From a virus (taxonomy: Duplodnaviria; Heunggongvirae; Uroviricota; Caudoviricetes), in IMG/VR virus record IMGVR_UViG_2541047864_000006: DNA of 46,863 nt. One strand, given 5' to 3'. Below, piece after piece: positions 4,722 to 46,863 of this stretch; the first letter of the stretch is position 1, and every line of letters starts with the position of its first letter. A program made the translations under genes and the position numbers. Under the pieces are notes generated by a model, which was not told the DNA's origin, made no database searches, and saw nothing but the letters and a program-made list of their open reading frames with translations.

Positions 4722-5546
4722 TCAGGCGGTGAAAGTACCAATAAAGGTTTCTACTTTGCTGTCTTTGAATTTCTCAACAAGCAGATCACGAAATTCGTTA
4801 GCCATATCTTCCTGCACCGCTTCCAGCTGAATAATGCGCAGAACCAGTACAGGACGATCGCCAGTGATAATGCTGAGGCGTAATTTAAACGGACGTTCTT
4901 TCAGACCTTCAAACGGAACGCATTTAAATTCAAATGCCACTGGCATAATGTCTTTGGTCTTCGCTTCGACAGATTCCATCAGGGAGCGTTTGCCGCTGAA
5001 GTCATTATCTTCAAAATCAGCGGTCTGGTTTGCTTCAATCGTGATTTTACGGACTGCCGCAGCCGCTTTTGTTGCCTGAATGGTGTCACCATTAGCATCA
5101 AAGCCCACAAGGTAGTCGGCCCAGTCTTCAATCCATTCTGCCAGTGACTTCTGGGAGTTACGCTCGCCGTTAACAGACAACAGGGCAGAGAACGGTGCTG
5201 TCTTTTTCAGTTTGAGAGTGGCGGTGTTATCTGCGTGACCTGGTTCATCAATAGTACCCAGGTTAAGTACACTGACGGCACGCATATTATCAGCATCGAT
5301 AAAGCAGCGGGTGCCTTCATCTGCAAGATCTTTAGAATAACGGGTAAAGTCATCGATGCTGGCAGTGGAAAGCGCACCACGGAAACGGAAGCGATTTAAA
5401 TTAAATTTTTCCAGATCATGAATGCGGAAATTCTCAGGCAATGCCACAGCATCGGCACCAATATTACTGATAATTTCATTAACACCCTGAGCAGAAATAA
5501 GGGCATGGATTTGATTAATTGCGGTTGCGTCTAAGTTCTGAGACAT
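4722..5546 (-). CDS. yfdQ: YfdQ-like protein (DUF2303)
   Basis: 274-aa ORF with GAGGA SD; size and N-terminus consistent with prophage YfdQ family (recall). Confidence 0.55.
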
Positions 5547-5611
5547 AATAAGTCCTCACTATATAAAGATATTCAGTGATGAGATAAATAATCAGTTAAT
5601 TAAGAACGATA

Positions 5612-5974
5612 TTAATGACCTGCTGCGCGTAGTTTTCCGTCAGGTTCACCGGCAAGAGTCAGTAATTGTCCCTGGTCTTCCTGCAGAATAGTCAGGCGAC
5701 CACCGCGATTGACATACATCGGCGTTTCGGTGGTGTCTTCTTCGGAAATTTTCCCGCGGTTAGTCGGGCGAACATATGAGAGTTTGTGTTTGATTTTCAC
5801 ACGGTTCTCATCAAATGGTTCGATTTCCAGGTTGAGTGAGACCTTACCTTTGGTTTTCGTGTTCATCACACCGGAAGCGACTTCACTGAGAACTGCGCCG
5901 ATTTTGGTTTCAAATACGCCGCCGTCCAGCTCCCCGATAAATGCCTGCACATCAGTACTGCGTTCGCTAGCCAT
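5612..5974 (-). CDS. YfdP-like hypothetical early protein
   Basis: 120 aa from ATG at 5974 preceded by AGGAG SD 7 nt upstream; the longer 197-aa track ORF is an unsupported upstream extension. Confidence 0.55.
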   Translation of the reverse strand: MASERSTDVQAFIGELDGGVFETKIGAVLSEVASGVMNTKTKGKVSLNLEIEPFDENRVKIKHKLSYVRPTNRGKISEEDTTETPMYVNRGGRLTILQEDQGQLLTLAGEPDGKLRAAGH

Positions 5975-6570
5975 TTTGCTGCTCCTCATCATATCGACCC
6001 TGCAAGGTCGGTTGGTTTCTCCACAAAACAGAGAAGAACACCTGCGGTGGCAGCCGCCCGGATGGATTGGGTTATGAGCCTGTCGTCCGGTGATGCTCTT
6101 CTCTGTTTTGTAAAAAGAGCGGTACCAGCCGGAAGCAAGTGTACAAACTGGTACCGCCAAAGCAGTGGCTGTTGTGGTGGGGTTGTCACTCAGGCGTATG
6201 GTCAACCTGACAATCCGGTGTCCTCAACGGGGAAAGAGTAACCCCGCCATACTTACCGCCGCGCCATTTCGCGGATTACCACAACGCTGAGAGCACTTAG
6301 CCAGTTACGGCACCACACTTTGTCGCGGCTCCATAAATGCCCTCATCGTTGCACCCTGGTCTCTTCCCAGGCGTCAAACCGGATCGCCACGCTGGTTAGG
6401 CGTCTTATCAGCATCATCATTGACTTGCACATTCCGGCTACCTGGTTTGTTTGCCCGAGCAAGAAGTGGATTGTCCCCTTTAACGTCCCCAGACCGCTAA
6501 CGACGCATGTGCCATACGCCGTGTTACAACCAAATTTTGTTTGAATCTTGCCTGCCTCATGTTTCTTTTG

Positions 6571-6603
6571 GATACATTATGTATCTCATGGGTACATTGT
6601 CAA
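6571..6603 (-). promoter_or_regulatory. Leftward early promoter pL (-35 TTGACA, 16-bp spacer, -10 CATAAT) overlapped by operator palindrome GATACAT-T-ATGTATC (OL)
   Basis: On minus strand: TTGACA at 6603-6598, CATAAT at 6581-6576; 15-bp palindrome 6571-6585 overlaps the -10. Confidence 0.5.
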
Positions 6604-6605
6604 GT

Positions 6606-6628
6606 ATAAAAAAACCTGCCGAAGCAGG
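6606..6628 (-). terminator. Rho-independent terminator downstream of cI
   Basis: Stem CCTGC/GCAGG with TTCG loop followed by U-run on minus strand, ~15 nt after cI stop. Confidence 0.6.
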
Positions 6629-6642
6629 TTCATAAATATTGA

Positions 6643-7317
6643 TTAGGCCTTTATTGTGTATCTTCTTGGTTTTCCCGAGAAAATCACTGTACCAATTATA
6701 GAGCAATTACCGTTAATCTTAATGTAAGGCTCAGGCCAGTTTGGGTTTAATGCTTTGAGATAACGCTGTGTTCCATCTTCTATCAATCGCTTGAAGGTGG
6801 TTTCGCCTGTATCGTGCATCAATGCAATAACGTCGTCACCGTGGCAGGCAGGGACTTCGGGATCAACAAAAATCATGTCTCCAGGGCGGTACTCATCAAT
6901 CATTGAATCACCAATCACCCGCAAGATATAAGTCATTTCGCCACAGGGTACAGGGCAGGGATACGTTTCTGCTGTGCTCAAATCAACCTCAGAATAGCCA
7001 ACTTCTTTCCATGCTCCGGCCTGTACCCATGATATGACAGGGACTAACGTTATTTGTTTGTTAGTGATTGAAACATCAGGTTTTTTTGTGATGTTCGTTG
7101 TCTGGTGTTCTTGATCAAGCCATCCGACAGGCAGGTCGAAACATTTTTCGATGTGCCGTGCCATGCTGTCACCGATATTTTTAGTAGCGCCATCCCCCAT
7201 AAACCTGCTGGTTTGGGTTGGCTCGCGATCAATCATGGTGGCAAAGGATGAATTTCCGCCAACACCATCTCTCAGTTTTCTGGCGTTAGACCGCCGGATG
7301 TCATGGATTGTTTTCAT
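6643..7317 (-). CDS. CI-type prophage repressor (N-terminal HTH, C-terminal S24 LexA-like autopeptidase)
   Basis: 224 aa; C-terminal GDSM (Ser nucleophile) and FKRL (Lys) motifs of S24 peptidases; divergent from cro. Confidence 0.85.
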   Translation of the reverse strand: MKTIHDIRRSNARKLRDGVGGNSSFATMIDREPTQTSRFMGDGATKNIGDSMARHIEKCFDLPVGWLDQEHQTTNITKKPDVSITNKQITLVPVISWVQAGAWKEVGYSEVDLSTAETYPCPVPCGEMTYILRVIGDSMIDEYRPGDMIFVDPEVPACHGDDVIALMHDTGETTFKRLIEDGTQRYLKALNPNWPEPYIKINGNCSIIGTVIFSGKPRRYTIKA

Positions 7318-36920: not shown

Positions 36921-40322
<3,402 letters not shown>

Positions 40323-40388: not shown

Positions 40389-40988
40389 ATGCGTAAATTA
40401 TGTGCTGTTATTCTGTCTGCAGTAGTCTGGCTGGTCGCCGCTGGTACGCCAGCGAGTGCAGCAGAGCATCAGTCCACACTAAGCGGCGGGTATCTTCAGT
40501 CCCATACTGATATGCCCGGCAACGATGACCTGAAGGGCATTAACGTGAAATACCGTTATGAATTTACGGACACGCTGGGGCTGGTGACGTCATTCAGCTA
40601 TGCAGGAGACAAGAATCGCCAGATTACCCGTTACAGCGATACCCGCTGGCATGAAGATTCAGTGCGTAACCGCTGGTTCAGCGTGATGGCGGGGCCGTCT
40701 GTACGCGTGAATGAATGGTTCAGTGCTTATGCGATGACGGGTGTGGCTTACAGCCGTGTTTCGACGTTCTCCGGGGATTATCTCCGCGTAACTGACAACA
40801 AGGGGAAAACGCACGATGTGCTGACCGGAAGTGATGGCGGTCGCCACAGCAACACGTCTCTGGCGTGGGGGGCTGGCGTGCAGTTTAACCCGACCGAATC
40901 CGTGGCCATTGACCTTGCTTATGAAGGTTCCGGCAGTGGCGACTGGCGCACTGACGGTTTCATCGTGGGTGTCGGTTATAAATTCTGA
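40389..40988 (+). CDS. lom: Lom outer-membrane protein (Ail/Lom family beta-barrel)
   Basis: 199 aa with signal peptide; Ail/Lom-like sequence; lambda lom position. Confidence 0.85.
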
Positions 40989-41014
40989 TTAGCCAGGTAA
41001 CACAGTGTTATGAC

Positions 41015-41042
41015 AGCCCGTCGGTTCAGGCGGGCTTTTTTG
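41015..41042 (+). terminator. Putative rho-independent terminator after lom
   Basis: GC-rich stem (AGCCCG/CGGGCT) followed by TTTTTT. Confidence 0.5.
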
Positions 41043-41052
41043 TGGAGTGGAT

Positions 41053-43764
41053 ATGGCAGCAGTAAAAATCTCAGGTGTGCTGAAAGATGGTGCGGGAAAA
41101 CCAATACAGAACTGCACTATTCAACTGAAGGCAAAGCGTAACAGCACCACGGTACTGGTGAACACGGTGGCCTCTGAAAATCCGGATGAAGCCGGGCGTT
41201 ACAGCATGGACGTTGAGTATGGCCAGTACAGCGTTATCCTGCTGGTTGAAGGTTTTCCGCCTTCACATGCCGGAACCATTACCGTCTATGAAGGTTCCAG
41301 ACCAGGTACGCTGAATGATTTTCTCGGTGCCATGACGGAAGATGATGTCATGCCGGAGGCATTGCGTCGTTTTGAGGAAATGGTGGAAGAAGCGGCACGC
41401 AACGCTGAAGCCGCCTCTCAGAGCGCAGCGGCGGCAAAGAAATCCGAAACTGCAGCGGCATCATCGAAGAACGCGGCGAAAACCTCAGAAACGAATGCAG
41501 CTAACAGCGCACAGGCGGCAGCGGCCTCGCAGACTGCATCGGCAAACTCCGCAACAGCAGCTAAAAAATCAGAAACCAACGCGAAAAATAGCGAGACAGC
41601 CGCAAAGACGAGCGAAACCAACGCAAAGTCCAGCCAGACGGCAGCGAAGACCAGCGAAACGAATGCCAAAACCAGTGAAACTGCAGCAAAAAACAGCCAG
41701 GTTGCAGCAGCCCAAAGCGAGAGCGCGGCAGCCGGTTCTGCGACTTCAGCAGCTGGATCAGCAACTGCTGCGGCTAACAGCCAGAAAGCTGCGAAGACGA
41801 GTGAAACTAACGCAAAGTCCAGCCAGACGGCAGCGAAGACCAGCGAAACGAATGCCAAAGCCAGTGAAACTGCAGCAAAAAACAGCCAGGTTGCAGCAGC
41901 CCAAAGCGAGAGCGCGGCAGCCGGTTCTGCGACTTCAGCAGCTGGATCAGCAACTGCTGCGGCTAACAGCCAGAAAGCTGCGAAGACGAGTGAAACCAAC
42001 GCAAAGTCCAGCCAGACGGCAGCGAAGACCAGCGAAACGAATGCCAAAACCAGTGAAACTGCAGCAAAAAACAGCCAGGTTGCAGCAGCCCAAAGCGAGA
42101 GCGCGGCAGCCGGTTCTGCGACTTCAGCAGCTGGATCAGCAACTAACGCAAAGTCCAGCCAGACGGCAGCGAAGACCAGCGAAACGAATGCCAAAGCCAG
42201 TGAAACTGCGGCGAAAAGCAGTCAGGATGCAGCGGCCCAAAGCGAGAGTGCCGCAGCCAGTTCTGCAAGCGCGGCGGCTGCTTCTGCTACTGCATCAGCT
42301 AACAGTCAAAAAGCAGCAAAAACCAGTGAAACCAACGCAAAGGTGAGCGAAACAGCGGCTGCGAGCTCAGCGAAAGCATCGGCAGCAAGCCAGACGGCAG
42401 CTAAAGCAAGCGAAGATGCAGCCAGAGAGTACGCAAGCCAGGCTGCGGAGCCGTATAAATATGTCTTACAGCCGCTGCCTGATGTGTGGATACCATTTAA
42501 CGATTCGCTGGATATGATTACGGGCTTTTCGCCATCATATAAAAAAATTGTTATTGGTGACGATGAAATAACGATGCCTGGCGACAAGATTGTTAAGTTT
42601 AAACGTGCATCGAAAGCAACCTATATTAACAAATCTGGTGTGCTGACAGAGGCTGCCATTGACGAGCCACGATTTGAACGTGATGGCCTGCTTATTGAGG
42701 GGCAAAGAACAAACTACATGCTCAATTCGGAAAGCCCTGCCAGTTGGGGGCGATCGTCAAATATGGATGTGCCCGAAACAGGGACGGATAATTTTGGTTT
42801 TACCTATGGAAAGTTTGTCTGCAACGATTCTCTGATTGGGCAAACCTCAGCCATTAATATGGCATCAATTGCTGCAACAAAGTCAGTTGATGTCTCAGGC
42901 GATAATAAACACGTGACAACCTCATGTCGTTTTAAAACAGAACTGCAGGTAAGGTTGCGTATCCGGTTTGATAAATATGACGGTAGCGCAACAACTTTTC
43001 TTGGTGATGCGTATATTGATACACAAACGCTTGAAATTAATATGACAGGCGGTGCTGCCTCAAGAATTACAGCGAGAGTCAGAAAGGACGAAGCTACCGG
43101 ATGGATTTTTGCAGAGGCAACAATTCAGGCAATTGATGGGGAGTTAAAAATAGGCTCTCAGATACAGTATTCTCCTAAGCAGAGCGGGGCAACCGTATCT
43201 GGTGACTATATTTATCTGGCCACCCCACAAGTAGAAGATGGGCCTTGTGTATCATCTTTTATTATATCAGGAGCGACGGCGGCGACCCGCGCAAGCGATA
43301 TAGTTACAGTTCCAATTAAGAATAATCTTTATAATCTTCCTTTTACGGTTCTTTGTGAGGTACATAAGAACTGGTATAAAACGCCAAATGCAGCGCCACG
43401 TGTTTTTGATACCGGCGGTCATCAAACCGGAGCGGCTATTATTCTTGGCTTCGGTCGTTCAACAGATTACGACGGATTTCCTTATTGCGATATTGGAGGA
43501 GCTAACAGACGGGTAAACGAAAACGCATTGCTTGAAAAAATGGTTATGGGGATGCGTGTAAAGTCAGATCAGTCTACGTGCTCAGTAAGTAACGGGCGTA
43601 TATCCAGCCAAACAAAAACCACATGGTCCTATATTCAGAACACCGCAATTATCCGTATTGGAGGCCAAACTACAGCCGGGTTACGTCATTTATTTGGTCA
43701 TGTCAGGAATTTCAGAATATGGCACAAGGCATTGACTGATGCTCAGGTGGGGGAGTCAATCTAA
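41053..43764 (+). CDS. stf: Side tail fibre Stf (lambda-like N-terminus, repetitive shaft, divergent C-terminal domain)
   Basis: ~903 aa from ATG 41053; N-terminal ~130 aa close to lambda Stf by recall; 63-aa tandem shaft repeats; C-terminal ~450 aa differ from lambda and look lectin/LamG-like. Confidence 0.85.
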   Translation: MAAVKISGVLKDGAGKPIQNCTIQLKAKRNSTTVLVNTVASENPDEAGRYSMDVEYGQYSVILLVEGFPPSHAGTITVYEGSRPGTLNDFLGAMTEDDVMPEALRRFEEMVEEAARNAEAASQSAAAAKKSETAAASSKNAAKTSETNAANSAQAAAASQTASANSATAAKKSETNAKNSETAAKTSETNAKSSQTAAKTSETNAKTSETAAKNSQVAAAQSESAAAGSATSAAGSATAAANSQKAAKTSETNAKSSQTAAKTSETNAKASETAAKNSQVAAAQSESAAAGSATSAAGSATAAANSQKAAKTSETNAKSSQTAAKTSETNAKTSETAAKNSQVAAAQSESAAAGSATSAAGSATNAKSSQTAAKTSETNAKASETAAKSSQDAAAQSESAAASSASAAAASATASANSQKAAKTSETNAKVSETAAASSAKASAASQTAAKASEDAAREYASQAAEPYKYVLQPLPDVWIPFNDSLDMITGFSPSYKKIVIGDDEITMPGDKIVKFKRASKATYINKSGVLTEAAIDEPRFERDGLLIEGQRTNYMLNSESPASWGRSSNMDVPETGTDNFGFTYGKFVCNDSLIGQTSAINMASIAATKSVDVSGDNKHVTTSCRFKTELQVRLRIRFDKYDGSATTFLGDAYIDTQTLEINMTGGAASRITARVRKDEATGWIFAEATIQAIDGELKIGSQIQYSPKQSGATVSGDYIYLATPQVEDGPCVSSFIISGATAATRASDIVTVPIKNNLYNLPFTVLCEVHKNWYKTPNAAPRVFDTGGHQTGAAIILGFGRSTDYDGFPYCDIGGANRRVNENALLEKMVMGMRVKSDQSTCSVSNGRISSQTKTTWSYIQNTAIIRIGGQTTAGLRHLFGHVRNFRIWHKALTDAQVGESI
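41599..42190. repeat. Tandem 189-bp repeat (~3.2 copies) within stf
   Basis: Repeat starts at 41599, 41788, 41977 (period 189); last copy carries a 42-bp deletion. Confidence 0.7.
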
Positions 43765-44045
43765 TGAAAGATTTAACACTCAAATTTCCCGACAGGGCCG
43801 ACTTTTCGGCCTTTATGGAGAGCATTGGCTATTATGATGACGAGTTGATGCAGGATGATATTCTTATTGACGTGATAGGTAACGTGTACAAAGAAACCGG
43901 AGAACTGACTGAAGATGGCGAACCGGTATGTGTTAAGGAAGACGGATATTTTGTAAACGTGCGCATCATTAATGATTCGCAAATATCGTCATTATTCGAT
44001 GAATACGTGGTTGCTGTTGAGCATCAACTTCGTGGCTGGATGTGA
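43764..44045 (+). CDS. Hypothetical acidic small protein (possible fibre chaperone/assembly factor)
   Basis: 93 aa, TAATG coupling to stf stop, GGGGGAG SD; lower GC than the upstream structural genes. Confidence 0.5.
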   Translation: MKDLTLKFPDRADFSAFMESIGYYDDELMQDDILIDVIGNVYKETGELTEDGEPVCVKEDGYFVNVRIINDSQISSLFDEYVVAVEHQLRGWM

Positions 44046-44054
44046 GGAAGAAAA

Positions 44055-45095
44055 ATGGCTACATCGACAGTAATTCCTGATGACATCAAAACGCTAAAAT
44101 CCGACGTTAGCAAATTAAAAAACGATCAAGGAAGCTACGCAACAAAATTATATGTAGACAGCAAAGATGAAATCGTTGGTGACTGGTCTGCTTCATGGTA
44201 TCAGCAGGTATTGCCAACTAGCGGAGCTATATTTGGGAGAAAACTCCGCTCAACTCACAGGACGGCAGGTGTTGAGGATGCGTATTGCGAACTATACCTC
44301 AAAAAATGGATAGACAGTCCAGGTAACGCAATGGCGCGCCTTAACCTGAACGATAACGGGACAAACATTTGCTGGGACTTTACCAACCTTTATGGCGGTA
44401 CGATGATTTTTCCCGGTGACAGCGGATACCTCAAAATGGGTAACTGCCTTATGTCATACAGCAAGCGTGGAAGTAACGCGCTTATTAAATTTGATTACAC
44501 CGACACATTACAGATCAAATATGCCAATCATGGGTCAACCATGACATTAAACACACAGGGAACCGCTTATGCTGGTGTTACTGCTCAATTGTGGGGCAAC
44601 TCCAGCCGTCCTGTTGTTTATGAAGTCGGTGTTGATGGTGGCGCTTATATGTTCTATGCGCAAAAAAATACCGATAACACCTATATGTTAAGCGTTAATG
44701 GTGCATGTCATGCCACCGCATTTAACCAGCATTCCGACCGGGATCTGAAAGACAACATTCAGGTGATCGATAATGCAACCGACCGCATCCGTAAAATGAA
44801 CGGCTATACATACACGCTTAAAGAAAACGGTATGCCCTATGCTGGTGTCATTGCACAGGAAGCTCTGGAAGCAATCCCAGAAGTTGTAGGTTCCGCAATG
44901 AAATATCAGGACGGTGCAAGCGGATCGGAAGGTGAAGAAGGTGAACGTTATTACACAGTAGATTATTCTGGTGTTACTGGCTTGCTTGTTCAGGTAGCCA
45001 GAGAGTCAGACGACAGAATAACAGCACTGGAAGAAGAAAACGCAGAATTAAGACAAAGATTATCTGCAATTGAGGCGGCGCTTGCGTCTAAATAA
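44055..45095 (+). CDS. Second tail-fibre-like protein with C-terminal intramolecular chaperone (peptidase S74-like) domain
   Basis: 346 aa; C-terminal DRDLKDNIQVIDNA...YTVDYSGVTGLLVQ...LEEENAELRQRL typical of self-cleaving fibre chaperone domains; GAGGAAG SD. Confidence 0.65.
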   Translation: MATSTVIPDDIKTLKSDVSKLKNDQGSYATKLYVDSKDEIVGDWSASWYQQVLPTSGAIFGRKLRSTHRTAGVEDAYCELYLKKWIDSPGNAMARLNLNDNGTNICWDFTNLYGGTMIFPGDSGYLKMGNCLMSYSKRGSNALIKFDYTDTLQIKYANHGSTMTLNTQGTAYAGVTAQLWGNSSRPVVYEVGVDGGAYMFYAQKNTDNTYMLSVNGACHATAFNQHSDRDLKDNIQVIDNATDRIRKMNGYTYTLKENGMPYAGVIAQEALEAIPEVVGSAMKYQDGASGSEGEEGERYYTVDYSGVTGLLVQVARESDDRITALEEENAELRQRLSAIEAALASK

Positions 45096-45099
45096 TATC

Positions 45100-45124
45100 A
45101 AGGGGCCGAGCGCCCCGTTTTATT
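45100..45124 (+). terminator. Putative rho-independent terminator
   Basis: Stem GGGGC/GCCCC, loop CGAGC, followed by GTTTTATT. Confidence 0.5.
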
Positions 45125-45131
45125 GGGTAGG

Positions 45132-45431
45132 ATGAAAATGGATATAACACCTTTCCTTCATGCGCTTTGTGCTGTGGCTGCGCAGCTACTGGTTGGTCTT
45201 TTTACCGGGAACTGGGCTTACGGGGCGATAGCCGGTTGTACGTTCTTCATTGCGCGTGAACACACCCAGGCGGAATATCGCTGGATTGAAATGTTTGGGC
45301 ATGGCAAGAGGATTAACATGCCGTGGTGGGGCGGTTTTGATCCGCGCGTGTGGGATGTGGCAAGCCTGATGGATTTTGCTGTGCCGGTGGTGGCGTGTCT
45401 GCTGGTCTGGCTGTTGGTTAATCGTGGGTGA
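45132..45431 (+). CDS. Small inner-membrane protein (candidate superinfection-exclusion/receptor-masking factor)
   Basis: ~99 aa with at least two predicted TM helices; located after fibre genes. Confidence 0.45.
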   Translation: MKMDITPFLHALCAVAAQLLVGLFTGNWAYGAIAGCTFFIAREHTQAEYRWIEMFGHGKRINMPWWGGFDPRVWDVASLMDFAVPVVACLLVWLLVNRG

Positions 45432-45453
45432 AAAAAGGTGAGCTGTATATGCA

Positions 45454-45561
45454 ATGGAGGAAGAAACCCCGTTGCTGGAAGCCTGGAAAAAGTATCGGGT
45501 GTTGCTGAACCGTGTTGATACGTCAACTGCACAGGATATTGAATGGCCAGCACTGCCGTAG
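45454..45561 (+). pseudogene. Remnant encoding only the conserved C-terminal ~35 aa of a Tfa tail-fibre assembly protein
   Basis: Translates to [35 protein letters not shown], which I recall as the conserved Tfa C-terminus; in-frame stop immediately upstream. Confidence 0.6.
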
Positions 45562-45658
45562 GGTAAAACATATAAATTCTATAATTAGATGTATCTTTCC
45601 ATTTACGGCAAGGAAGGGGGCTTGGAAGACGTAAAGCATCTCACACCGAGATTATTTT

Positions 45659-46249
45659 TTATATGTCAGGTGTCTGAAGTTTTGCTTTGGCTCTTAAAAT
45701 GGTTTGCCGCGAGGTTTTGAATTCCCGGGCAATGGCACTTATACTTACACCTGACTTAATTCGTTCGAATACCACCTGTTTCTGTTCTTCATTTAACACA
45801 GGTGGTCGACCAAAACGTTTCCCTGCGCCCCGGGCTCTTACTATCCCGGAATGAGTGCGTTCAAGTAAAAGGTCTCGTTCAAATTCAGCGACTGCTGAAA
45901 TTACTTGCATCATCATTTTTCCTGTTGGACTGGTCAGGTCAATGCCCCCCAATGCTAAGCAATGCACTCTGATACCTGTTTCGGTCAGTTGTTCCACTGT
46001 TTTCCTGATATCCATTGCATTACAACCAAGGCGATCCAGTTTTGTCACAATCAATTGATCACCACATTTCAGGCGAGCAAGCAACCGGTTAAAACCAGGA
46101 CGCTCACTGGTTGCTGCTGAGCCGCTAATGTGTTCTTCGATTATTTGCTGAGGTTTGATTTTAAAGCCTGCACTTTCGATTTCCCGGCGTTGATTTTCGG
46201 TGGTCTGATCCAGAGTTGATATCCGACAGTAAGCAAAAATTCGAGACAT
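45659..46249 (-). CDS. pin: Serine DNA invertase (Pin/Gin/Cin/Hin family)
   Basis: 196 aa; N-terminal YCRISTLDQ catalytic-serine motif and C-terminal HTH; matches E. coli prophage Pin invertases by recall. Confidence 0.95.
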
Positions 46250-46337
46250 AGTGAGACTCTATACGAAATTGGTGTACATATCATAATGCATATCCAAAAA
46301 TTATTTCGCTTATTATTGCACATATTTGTATGTATAC

Positions 46338-46435
46338 GTTCGAAAATAAACAAATTCGGATGCAGTCCCGTAATTTTGGTGTAACCTAAAATCGATTTTT
46401 TGAAAAATGGCTTTAACTCGGTTTGTTTTTCGAAC
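46338..46435. repeat. Imperfect inverted repeat (GTTCGAAAATAAACAAA / GTTTGTTTTTCGAAC) flanking palindrome AAAATCGATTTT, upstream of pin
   Basis: Read directly; 90-190 bp upstream of pin start codon. Confidence 0.35.
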
Positions 46436-46629
46436 TCCGGGCGGACTCGAGAAAGACGAATAATAGTGTTGTATGTTGTTTTAGCCAGATTTCAATTTGT
46501 TTGGTCTTGGAAAAGTGGAGCAAAAAGTTGTTAAAGTGGAAAAATGGTAAAAAAAGTAGGTTGTTGCGGAATAACGTAGTTGTTGATATTTTTTAATGCA
46601 TTGAAAAATTATTTTTCAGGGGGTGTTTA

Positions 46630-46863
46630 TTACACTTTACCATTTAAATTTTGGTTGTCTTTAAGAACTGATATCGCTGTTTGTAATAATTCTTTGTTAT
46701 CCAGCCATGACTTTTTCTTTATGTTTCCTTCAATGTAATCAAGCAATGTTCTGGTATTGATAGGTCTTCCCTGTTTTGCCACTTCCACGACAGCATCTCC
46801 CAGGATAATTCTGACTTCAGGAAGCTGCGCGGGGAACCACTTTAGGGTGTCATTTGATTTCAT
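46630..46863 (-). CDS. ydfK: YdfK-like small protein (cold-shock-induced prophage protein family)
   Basis: 77 aa; MKSNDTLKWFPAQLPEVRIILGDAVVEVAKQGRPINTRTLLDYIEG matches E. coli YdfK/YnaE by recall; start codon at window edge. Confidence 0.8.
   Translation of the reverse strand: MKSNDTLKWFPAQLPEVRIILGDAVVEVAKQGRPINTRTLLDYIEGNIKKKSWLDNKELLQTAISVLKDNQNLNGKV

Follow-up and report, generated by a model that had tools for sequence, protein, structure and literature searches.

How did the side tail fiber gene stf of a lambdoid Escherichia coli (E. coli) prophage become separated from its tail fiber assembly gene tfa, of which only a 3' stump is left, and what kind of fiber do the genes lying between the two encode? 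The question arose from IMG/VR record IMGVR_UViG_2541047864_000006, a Caudoviricetes sequence of 46,863 nucleotides (nt), which is called the window in the following and to which all positions refer; it holds the late-gene arm of such a prophage. An original prediction, made by a model from the sequence alone, had read positions 42400 to 45561 as a swapped receptor-binding module, and every element that it listed was found where it had been placed, to within a few bases. According to our analysis, the region is probably the host-range end of a lambdoid prophage of the Tritos/Rac type that lost its Stf tip and most of tfa to a foreign lateral fiber module and now encodes a fiber of two components. 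The locus itself is already annotated and common, and it is typical tail fiber mosaicism. What the analysis suggests as new, and as yet unproven, is a recurrent triad of genes that includes an uncharacterized 93-amino-acid protein (p93), and the near-identity of this block with the DNA of a virulent phage.

The breakpoints were placed by alignment with lambda and with the stf-tfa region of K-12 Rac; a check of this kind, against lambda, e14, and Qin, had been proposed in the original prediction. Homology to lambda and Rac at the DNA level (blastn) covers 40799-41405, i.e., the 3' end of lom and the Stf N-terminal domain, with 90% identity to Rac and 83% to lambda (starting at 40799 or 40861, depending on the match), and is next found only from 45450. 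From there on, Rac is colinear at 91% through the 3' end of tfaR, pinR, and ynaE, while lambda matches with the 3' end of its tfa, and a fine alignment set the right junction at 45449/45450. Identity of the stump amounts to 96% with tfaR and 93% with lambda tfa; its five differences from tfaR are too few for a ratio of nonsynonymous to synonymous substitutions. The apparent start codon of its 35-codon open reading frame (ORF) stems from an ACG-to-ATG change at Thr156 of TfaR, and five codons farther upstream the frame runs into a stop. This ORF matches the profile PF02413 (Caudo_TAP) at positions 97-130 of 131, and tblastn with lambda Tfa and TfaR recovered residues 156-191 only from the whole window. 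It is thus the sole Tfa remnant, as predicted, and an overlooked intact Tfa, which the prediction had named as a finding that would speak against it, was detected in no frame of the window. RefSeq/PGAP likewise labels the stump a pseudogene ("tail fiber assembly protein, incomplete, missing N-terminus"). The C-termini of lambda and Rac Stf, including lambda orf-314, showed no protein-level resemblance to anything in the window (tblastn), nor did the window contain a gp37-like, Tfa-dependent Stf C-terminal region. The gene order and flanks (J, lom, stf, tfa 3' end, pin, ynaE/ydfK) are those of the stf-tfa(-pin) loci of Rac, Qin, and lambda, and Rac retains the ancestral stfR-tfaR-pinR-ynaE architecture intact; here, however, 3 kb of unrelated genes have taken the place of both the gp37-like Stf C-terminus and residues 1-155 of Tfa.

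On the left side, Stf carries the prophage tail fiber N-terminal domain PF08400 at amino acids 5-134 (223.9 bits, cut-off 26.6). Lambda Stf aligns to amino acids 5-309 only and StfR to amino acids 5-126 only, the latter with 88% protein identity. A lambda-like N-terminus and shaft joined to a foreign C-terminus, as had been proposed, is what the alignments and the base composition agree on, with the last ~446 codons of stf lying in a block of low guanine-cytosine (GC) content. This block starts at ~42427-42469, where homology to other phages has its left edges (42427 for tunus, 42443 for phage 21, and 42469 for ESCO3 and VogelGryff), and holds the stf tip, the p93 gene, and the gene of a 346-amino-acid second fiber (p346). 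The predicted low-GC cassette had correctly included the latter two genes, but it has to be redrawn: the ~446 stf codons belong to it, whereas the membrane protein gene that follows does not (GC contents are given in Table 1). The left crossover plausibly took place by homologous recombination, either in the repetitive shaft or in the stretch encoding amino acids 470-562, which is conserved in all carriers. For comparison, De Paepe et al. (2014) found recombination of lambda with the stf-tfa regions of Rac and Qin at ~2e-6. The right junctions (45031-45137 and 45449/45450) share no sequence and look illegitimate. Since phage 21 carries an identical junction of membrane gene and tfa stump, this junction must be old and common to lambdoid phages rather than specific to this prophage, and the scar is ancestral to a large lambdoid phage group. 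The proposed exchange of a receptor-binding module by recombination is therefore backed by the mapped breakpoints, and the "scar" of the original prediction stands with the refinement that it is an old one. Some variation was seen at this position among relatives. Locus L089 contains ~1-1.3 kb of extra DNA between membrane gene and tfa stump (5717-7028), and the same applies to locus L042 (6785-7737), which also has a second copy of the stump; in loci L015 and L021, homology ends directly past the membrane gene.

With regards to distribution, phages Tritos, HannyBb, and PhiR63_1 carry the stretch 42300-45700 with 99% identity, and 2G7b matches 96% of its length with 98% identity. Of 5426 complete E. 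coli genomes, 392 (~7%) have at least 80% of it in one piece. Tritos produces virions and plaques, and the other three are phage isolates; no literature on HannyBb was found. The low-GC block was also present in virulent phages. Positions 42469-45031 match Nonagvirus ESCO3's lateral tail fiber locus (L006, 3001-5563) with 94.4% DNA identity over 2.56 kb, the Seuratvirus VogelGryff is 81% identical up to 43787, and the Drexlerviridae phage tunus (Warwickvirus) is 77% identical up to 44126. These siphophages and the Dhillonvirus KarlBarth share the same three-gene block, but their first fiber has a different N-terminal domain, and neither the membrane gene nor the tfa stump nor pin is present in them. 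Phage 21 matches at 42443-43411 with 82% and at 45129-45507 with 94% identity, the latter segment spanning the membrane gene and reaching 57 nt into the tfa stump. This phage has the same type of Stf, a p93 homolog (54%), and the membrane protein (95%), but no second fiber gene; the last ~117 amino acids of its Stf are divergent, and sitABCD takes the place of pin.

The new Stf tip follows a shaft with a 189-bp tandem repeat at 41590-42144 (2.9 copies, 97% matches, Tandem Repeats Finder), which is built of 21-bp heptad units. Stf homologs have lengths of 727/728, 790/791, and 903 amino acids, indicating that the copy number of the repeat, and presumably the fiber length, varies between strains. 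Downstream of the shaft, amino acids 549-749 match the NCBIfam domain NF048003 (gene transfer agent head spike fiber domain; 50.2 bits, cut-off 36), and phmmer aligned amino acids ~518-764 with Rcc01080, the head fiber of the gene transfer agent RcGTA (E 1.1e-7). The ligand of Rcc01080 is the capsule polysaccharide of Rhodobacter. Unlike the present domain, which ends a tail fiber shaft, Rcc01080 is a single-subunit head decoration of an alphaproteobacterial gene transfer agent. The last 50 residues resembled Laminin_G_3 (E 0.0013), a match under the threshold, and a profile search of PDB sequences with the C-terminal 175 amino acids gave nothing useful for function. Homologs collected for the C-terminus comprised near-identical sequences only. 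Among eight phages, amino acids 470-562 and 873-903 were conserved and amino acids 563-717 highly variable, which fits a scaffold carrying variable ligand-binding parts. Judged from these similarities, the Stf tip is likely a lectin-like, glycan-binding domain that is related to the RcGTA head fiber and independent of Tfa. This agrees with the BASEL papers, in which such lateral fibers are proposed to bind O-antigen glycans as primary receptor.

Directly behind stf lies the gene for p93, an acidic protein with an isoelectric point of 4.05. Its homologs, too, sit directly 3' of tail fiber genes, and this holds in six groups, i.e., lambdoid, Drexlerviridae, Dhillonvirus, Queuovirinae, T5-like, and rV5-like phages. 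The family is small and comprises 52 clusters at 50% identity (1.84 billion representatives searched). No Pfam entry was matched up to an E of 10, and a profile search of PDB sequences gave nothing useful. The AlphaFold2 (AF2) model was of good quality, with a predicted local distance difference test (pLDDT) score of 88.7, and had generic structural neighbors only, none of them informative; as for the Stf C-terminus, the homolog collection was limited to near-identical sequences. A p93 homolog without a second fiber is found in phage 21 and in the rV5-like phage naswa, so the primary partner of p93 is probably the first fiber. With its start overlapping the stf stop, p93 would be translationally coupled to stf, and it is a candidate for a dedicated chaperone or connector of Stf.

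The second fiber, p346, was predicted to be a fiber protein with a self-cleaving S74 chaperone domain, and the profile search agreed. PF13884 (Peptidase_S74) matched amino acids 227-278 of 346 with 52.8 bits (cut-off 22), and S227, D228, R229, L231, and K232 were at least 90% conserved in 29 homologs. As is established for endoNF and T5 pb1, we take Ser227 and Lys232 to be the dyad of the cleavage site. Presumably, p346 would trimerize through its own self-cleaving chaperone. The N-terminus consists of a conserved motif and a helix (approximately amino acids 1-30, with the AF2-predicted helix at 9-28), followed in the middle by a beta-rich domain of 160 amino acids (AF2 secondary structure), which includes a stretch similar in sequence to T4 gp34. 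For the N-terminal part, Pfam searches up to an E of 10 gave nothing useful, and PADLOC likewise contributed nothing useful for function. All four cassette proteins fall into PHROGs families (1419, 1361, 4563, and 1443), and the cassette genes are tail fiber-related; that they might prove unrelated to tail fibers had been named as the other possible objection to the prediction.

The arrangement of the three genes is what points to a common fiber. In five of the groups (lambdoid, Drexlerviridae, Queuovirinae, Dhillonvirus, and T5-like phages), the gene after p93 starts with the motif M[AV]T.T.IP.DI..LK, and the first fibers of these five groups each end with ...HLFGHVRNFRIWHKALTD. The 80 IMG/VR loci that were retrieved by a close alignment with p93 are close relatives only (at least 90% identical); in all 78 of those that extend so far, the motif-bearing ORF begins 10 nt past the p93 stop. 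Without exception, the 14 phage records that both searches list also have the motif beginning 10-20 nt past where the p93 match ends. Adjacent fiber genes in which a conserved second-fiber N-terminus co-occurs with a conserved part of the first fiber, as in the LtfA/LtfB type, are thus a feature of this locus. In the T5-like phages DT57C and DT571/2 (PMC4728585, PMC10713586), two fiber genes are adjacent as well and the first one has the virion-attachment N-terminus, while the LtfB-type second fiber has an S74 chaperone and a short N-terminus that is conserved across unrelated phages and taken as a docking mark. The systems differ in that the first fiber here is devoid of an S74 domain and has a predicted lectin-like globular domain at its end, and in that a ~90-amino-acid protein is always encoded between the two fiber genes. 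The likeness is one of layout, with a putative attachment of the second fiber to the first in our case. By this analogy, the recurrence of the triad in five phage groups suggests a two-component fiber. Neither p93 nor the triad of first fiber, ~90-amino-acid protein, and second fiber was found described in the literature.

We propose that an ancestral stf-tfa-pin locus kept its virion-attachment end, i.e., the Stf N-terminal domain and shaft, while its gp37-like Stf tip and some 155 tfa codons gave way to a foreign lateral tail fiber module. Following the logic of LtfA/LtfB in DT57C, Stf would then be the proximal part of the fiber, with its own glycan-binding tip and no use for Tfa, and p93 would serve as its chaperone or connector. 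After self-maturation via S74, p346 could dock with its N-terminal ~20-30 residues onto the Stf tip or onto p93, and the result would be a branched or extended fiber of two components with two receptor-binding regions. Alleles of the second fiber would be exchangeable between the N-terminal motif and the membrane gene. More tentatively, p93 (phrog_1361) could represent an unrecognized class of fiber accessory, which possibly forms a "socket" with the lectin-like Stf tip for distal fibers bearing the ~20-residue motif as a "plug"; temperate lambdoid phages would have this host-range interface in common with virulent Drexlerviridae, Queuovirinae, Dhillonvirus, and T5-like phages, with recent exchange between them in view of the 94% DNA identity. 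Several results weigh against these proposals. In the deposited Rcc01080 structure only residues 2-10 are resolved, so that the match yields no fold for the Stf tip. No stretch of the tip clearly tracked the presence of a second fiber when a docking site was searched for by tip conservation. For p346, the structure prediction that had been asked for was of poor quality (pLDDT 63.7, from a 29-sequence alignment) and gave secondary structure but no fold assignment; Foldseek against the PDB returned nothing with an E below 0.05, T4 gp34 alone reaching a probability of 1.0 at an E of 0.12. The membrane protein had no family match beyond PHROGs (Pfam up to an E of 10).

The second fiber gene exists in two main forms among the IMG/VR loci, the 346-amino-acid S74 protein and one of ~234 amino acids that is 55% identical to the second fiber gp83 of tunus. 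The shorter form (L065 and about 30 other loci, locus position ~5292-5996) keeps the motif, and its resemblance to S74 is weak (25% over 67 amino acids). In L065, which represents this form, homology to the window stops at 44098 and restarts at 45137; the conserved second-fiber N-terminus and the membrane gene therefore flank a nested exchangeable segment. The cassette is thus a composite of the low-GC three-gene block, the nested second-fiber allele (44098-45137), and the membrane gene as a separate unit. The membrane protein comprises 97 amino acids from its annotated start at 45138 or 102 from a TTG at 45123, with two strongly hydrophobic segments. No promoter match was found in front of its gene, and the terminator-like hairpin there comes from a scan whose site totals for the region equaled chance. 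The gene is also missing from the list of Tritos genes that exceed background at least 5-fold in LF82. The protein was 90-97% identical among some 50 records of lambdoid phages, whatever the Stf tip, and P22-like phages have it adjoining tailspike, oafA, and int. The P22-like phage vB_EcoP-611R6 combines the last 165 nt of the S74 fiber gene with the membrane gene between oafA and int (L009 3793-4243 versus window 44930-45380, 94%). Its fiber gene is cut to a 37-codon stump, a second, independent scar of like kind in a podovirus.

The features of the locus are compiled in Table 1. An additional ORF of 117 codons on the reverse strand (45218-45571), which lies across the membrane gene and the tfa stump, is backed by no homology and probably spurious. 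Past the invertase, the GC content falls to 0.33-0.35 (46200-46863), where RefSeq places ydfK (cold shock) and a YnaM/YnfT-family gene, followed beyond the window by a DinI-like gene and prfC. The end of the prophage is therefore probably near.

Table 1. Coordinates, strand, and GC content of the features in the late-gene arm.
Feature	Position	Strand	GC	Remarks
J	36924-40322	+		
lom	40389-40988	+		
stf	41047-43764 (ORF)	+		annotated ATG 41053, 903 amino acids
stf 5' part	41053-42426	+	0.552	lambda/Rac-type N-terminal domain and Ala/Ser/Thr/Lys-rich repeat shaft
stf 3' part	42427-43764	+	0.442	non-lambda C-terminal module, head-spike-fiber-like domain and ConA/LamG-like C-terminal end
p93 gene	43764-44045	+	0.418	93-amino-acid acidic protein, phrog_1361; start overlaps stf stop (ATGA)
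p346 gene	44055-45095	+	0.444	346-amino-acid second fiber, PF13884, phrog_4563
S74 part of p346	44733-45095	+		intramolecular chaperone, from Ser227
Terminator-like GC hairpin, then GTTTTATT	45102-45125	+		between second fiber and membrane genes; consensus match only
Membrane protein gene	45138-45431	+	0.544	97 amino acids, phrog_1443
tfa 3' remnant	45450-45561 (homology)	+		pseudogene; 35-codon ORF 45454-45561
PinR/PinQ-type serine DNA invertase gene	45659-46249	-		intact

Other explanations of the locus have to be weighed against a two-component fiber. The cassette genes might be unused debris of a decaying prophage with a broken fiber system, since cryptic prophages such as Rac and Qin typically show a truncated tfa along with an orphan invertase. 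We regard this as very improbable: none of the four cassette ORFs is disrupted and each is conserved among hundreds to thousands of sequences, the module occurs in plaque-forming phages or ones obtained as virions, the junction of membrane gene and tfa stump is shared by phage 21, a classical viable phage, and virulent phages have the three-gene block but no tfa at all. The same invertase could also suggest a host-range switch that is, or recently was, inverted by Pin as in the G segment of Mu, the C segment of P1, and the P segment of e14, with the tfa fragment as one arm. Its gene, found on the opposite strand and 98 bp downstream, adjoins the fiber genes, its product matches PF00239 (Resolvase, 125 bits), PF02796 (HTH_7), and the DNA invertase family phrog_125, and De Paepe et al. 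(2014) credit such invertases with ancient stf exchanges. A present or recent switch is nevertheless scarcely conceivable. Inverted repeats within 6 kb were not convincing, the best being 71-89% complementary over 14-31 nt, which is at chance level, and no gix/pix-type consensus core AAACCNNGGTTT was found near the locus. Inverted crossover sites flanking alternative fiber or Tfa segments were hence not detected within these searches, no reverse-strand fiber or Tfa coding sequence was present in the window (tblastn), and the 20 E. coli matches listed were all colinear and in a single piece. The invertase gene and its flanks are 91% identical in DNA to Rac pinR and its flanks; the invertase is an orphan, as in K-12 Rac, where the arrangement is the same.

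A different role is conceivable for two of the proteins. Annotations of the VogelGryff and ESCO3 homologs as "putative lateral tail fiber chaperone" and "endosialidase chaperone" would make p346 a free chaperone of Stf instead of a fiber in the virion, and with no S74 domain of its own, Stf could be thought to receive one in trans. However, S74 domains act in cis on their own polypeptide, as is known from the K1F endosialidase and T5 pb1. In addition, p346 has a full fiber layout with N-terminal helix, 160-amino-acid beta-rich gp34-like domain, and cleavage motif; its middle varies between alleles in the manner of receptor-binding domains while both ends are conserved, and PHROG 4563 and its relatives are tail fiber families, which leaves a trans-acting chaperone unlikely. 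The membrane protein, in turn, might be a functional part of the fiber system, e.g., a membrane-anchored assembly factor, given that its gene is always directly 3' of the fiber genes in lambdoid phages, forms the conserved right flank of the second-fiber exchange, and does not figure among the morons reported to be expressed in lysogens of Tritos. We give this only a small chance, because the gene is missing from all virulent phages with the same fiber triad, its product is conserved regardless of the type of fiber tip, it differs in GC content and is preceded by the terminator-like hairpin, and its place in P22-like phages is the usual one for conversion genes. The membrane gene is better described as a putative separate, moron-like accessory unit, and the two-component fiber made from Stf, p93, and p346 is retained as the preferred reading.

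Side and lateral tail fibers decide which surface glycans of E. coli a phage gets past. Save for an ancient stf gene transfer, De Paepe et al. (2014) described no mosaics of recent date between temperate and virulent phages, and the 94% identity of this prophage block with a virulent Nonagvirus provides a concrete example of genes passing fairly recently between coliphages of the two lifestyles. If docking through the motif and p93 holds true, it would be a natural portable interface for swapping distal receptor-binding fibers, both in lambda-based delivery particles and in therapeutic siphophages.

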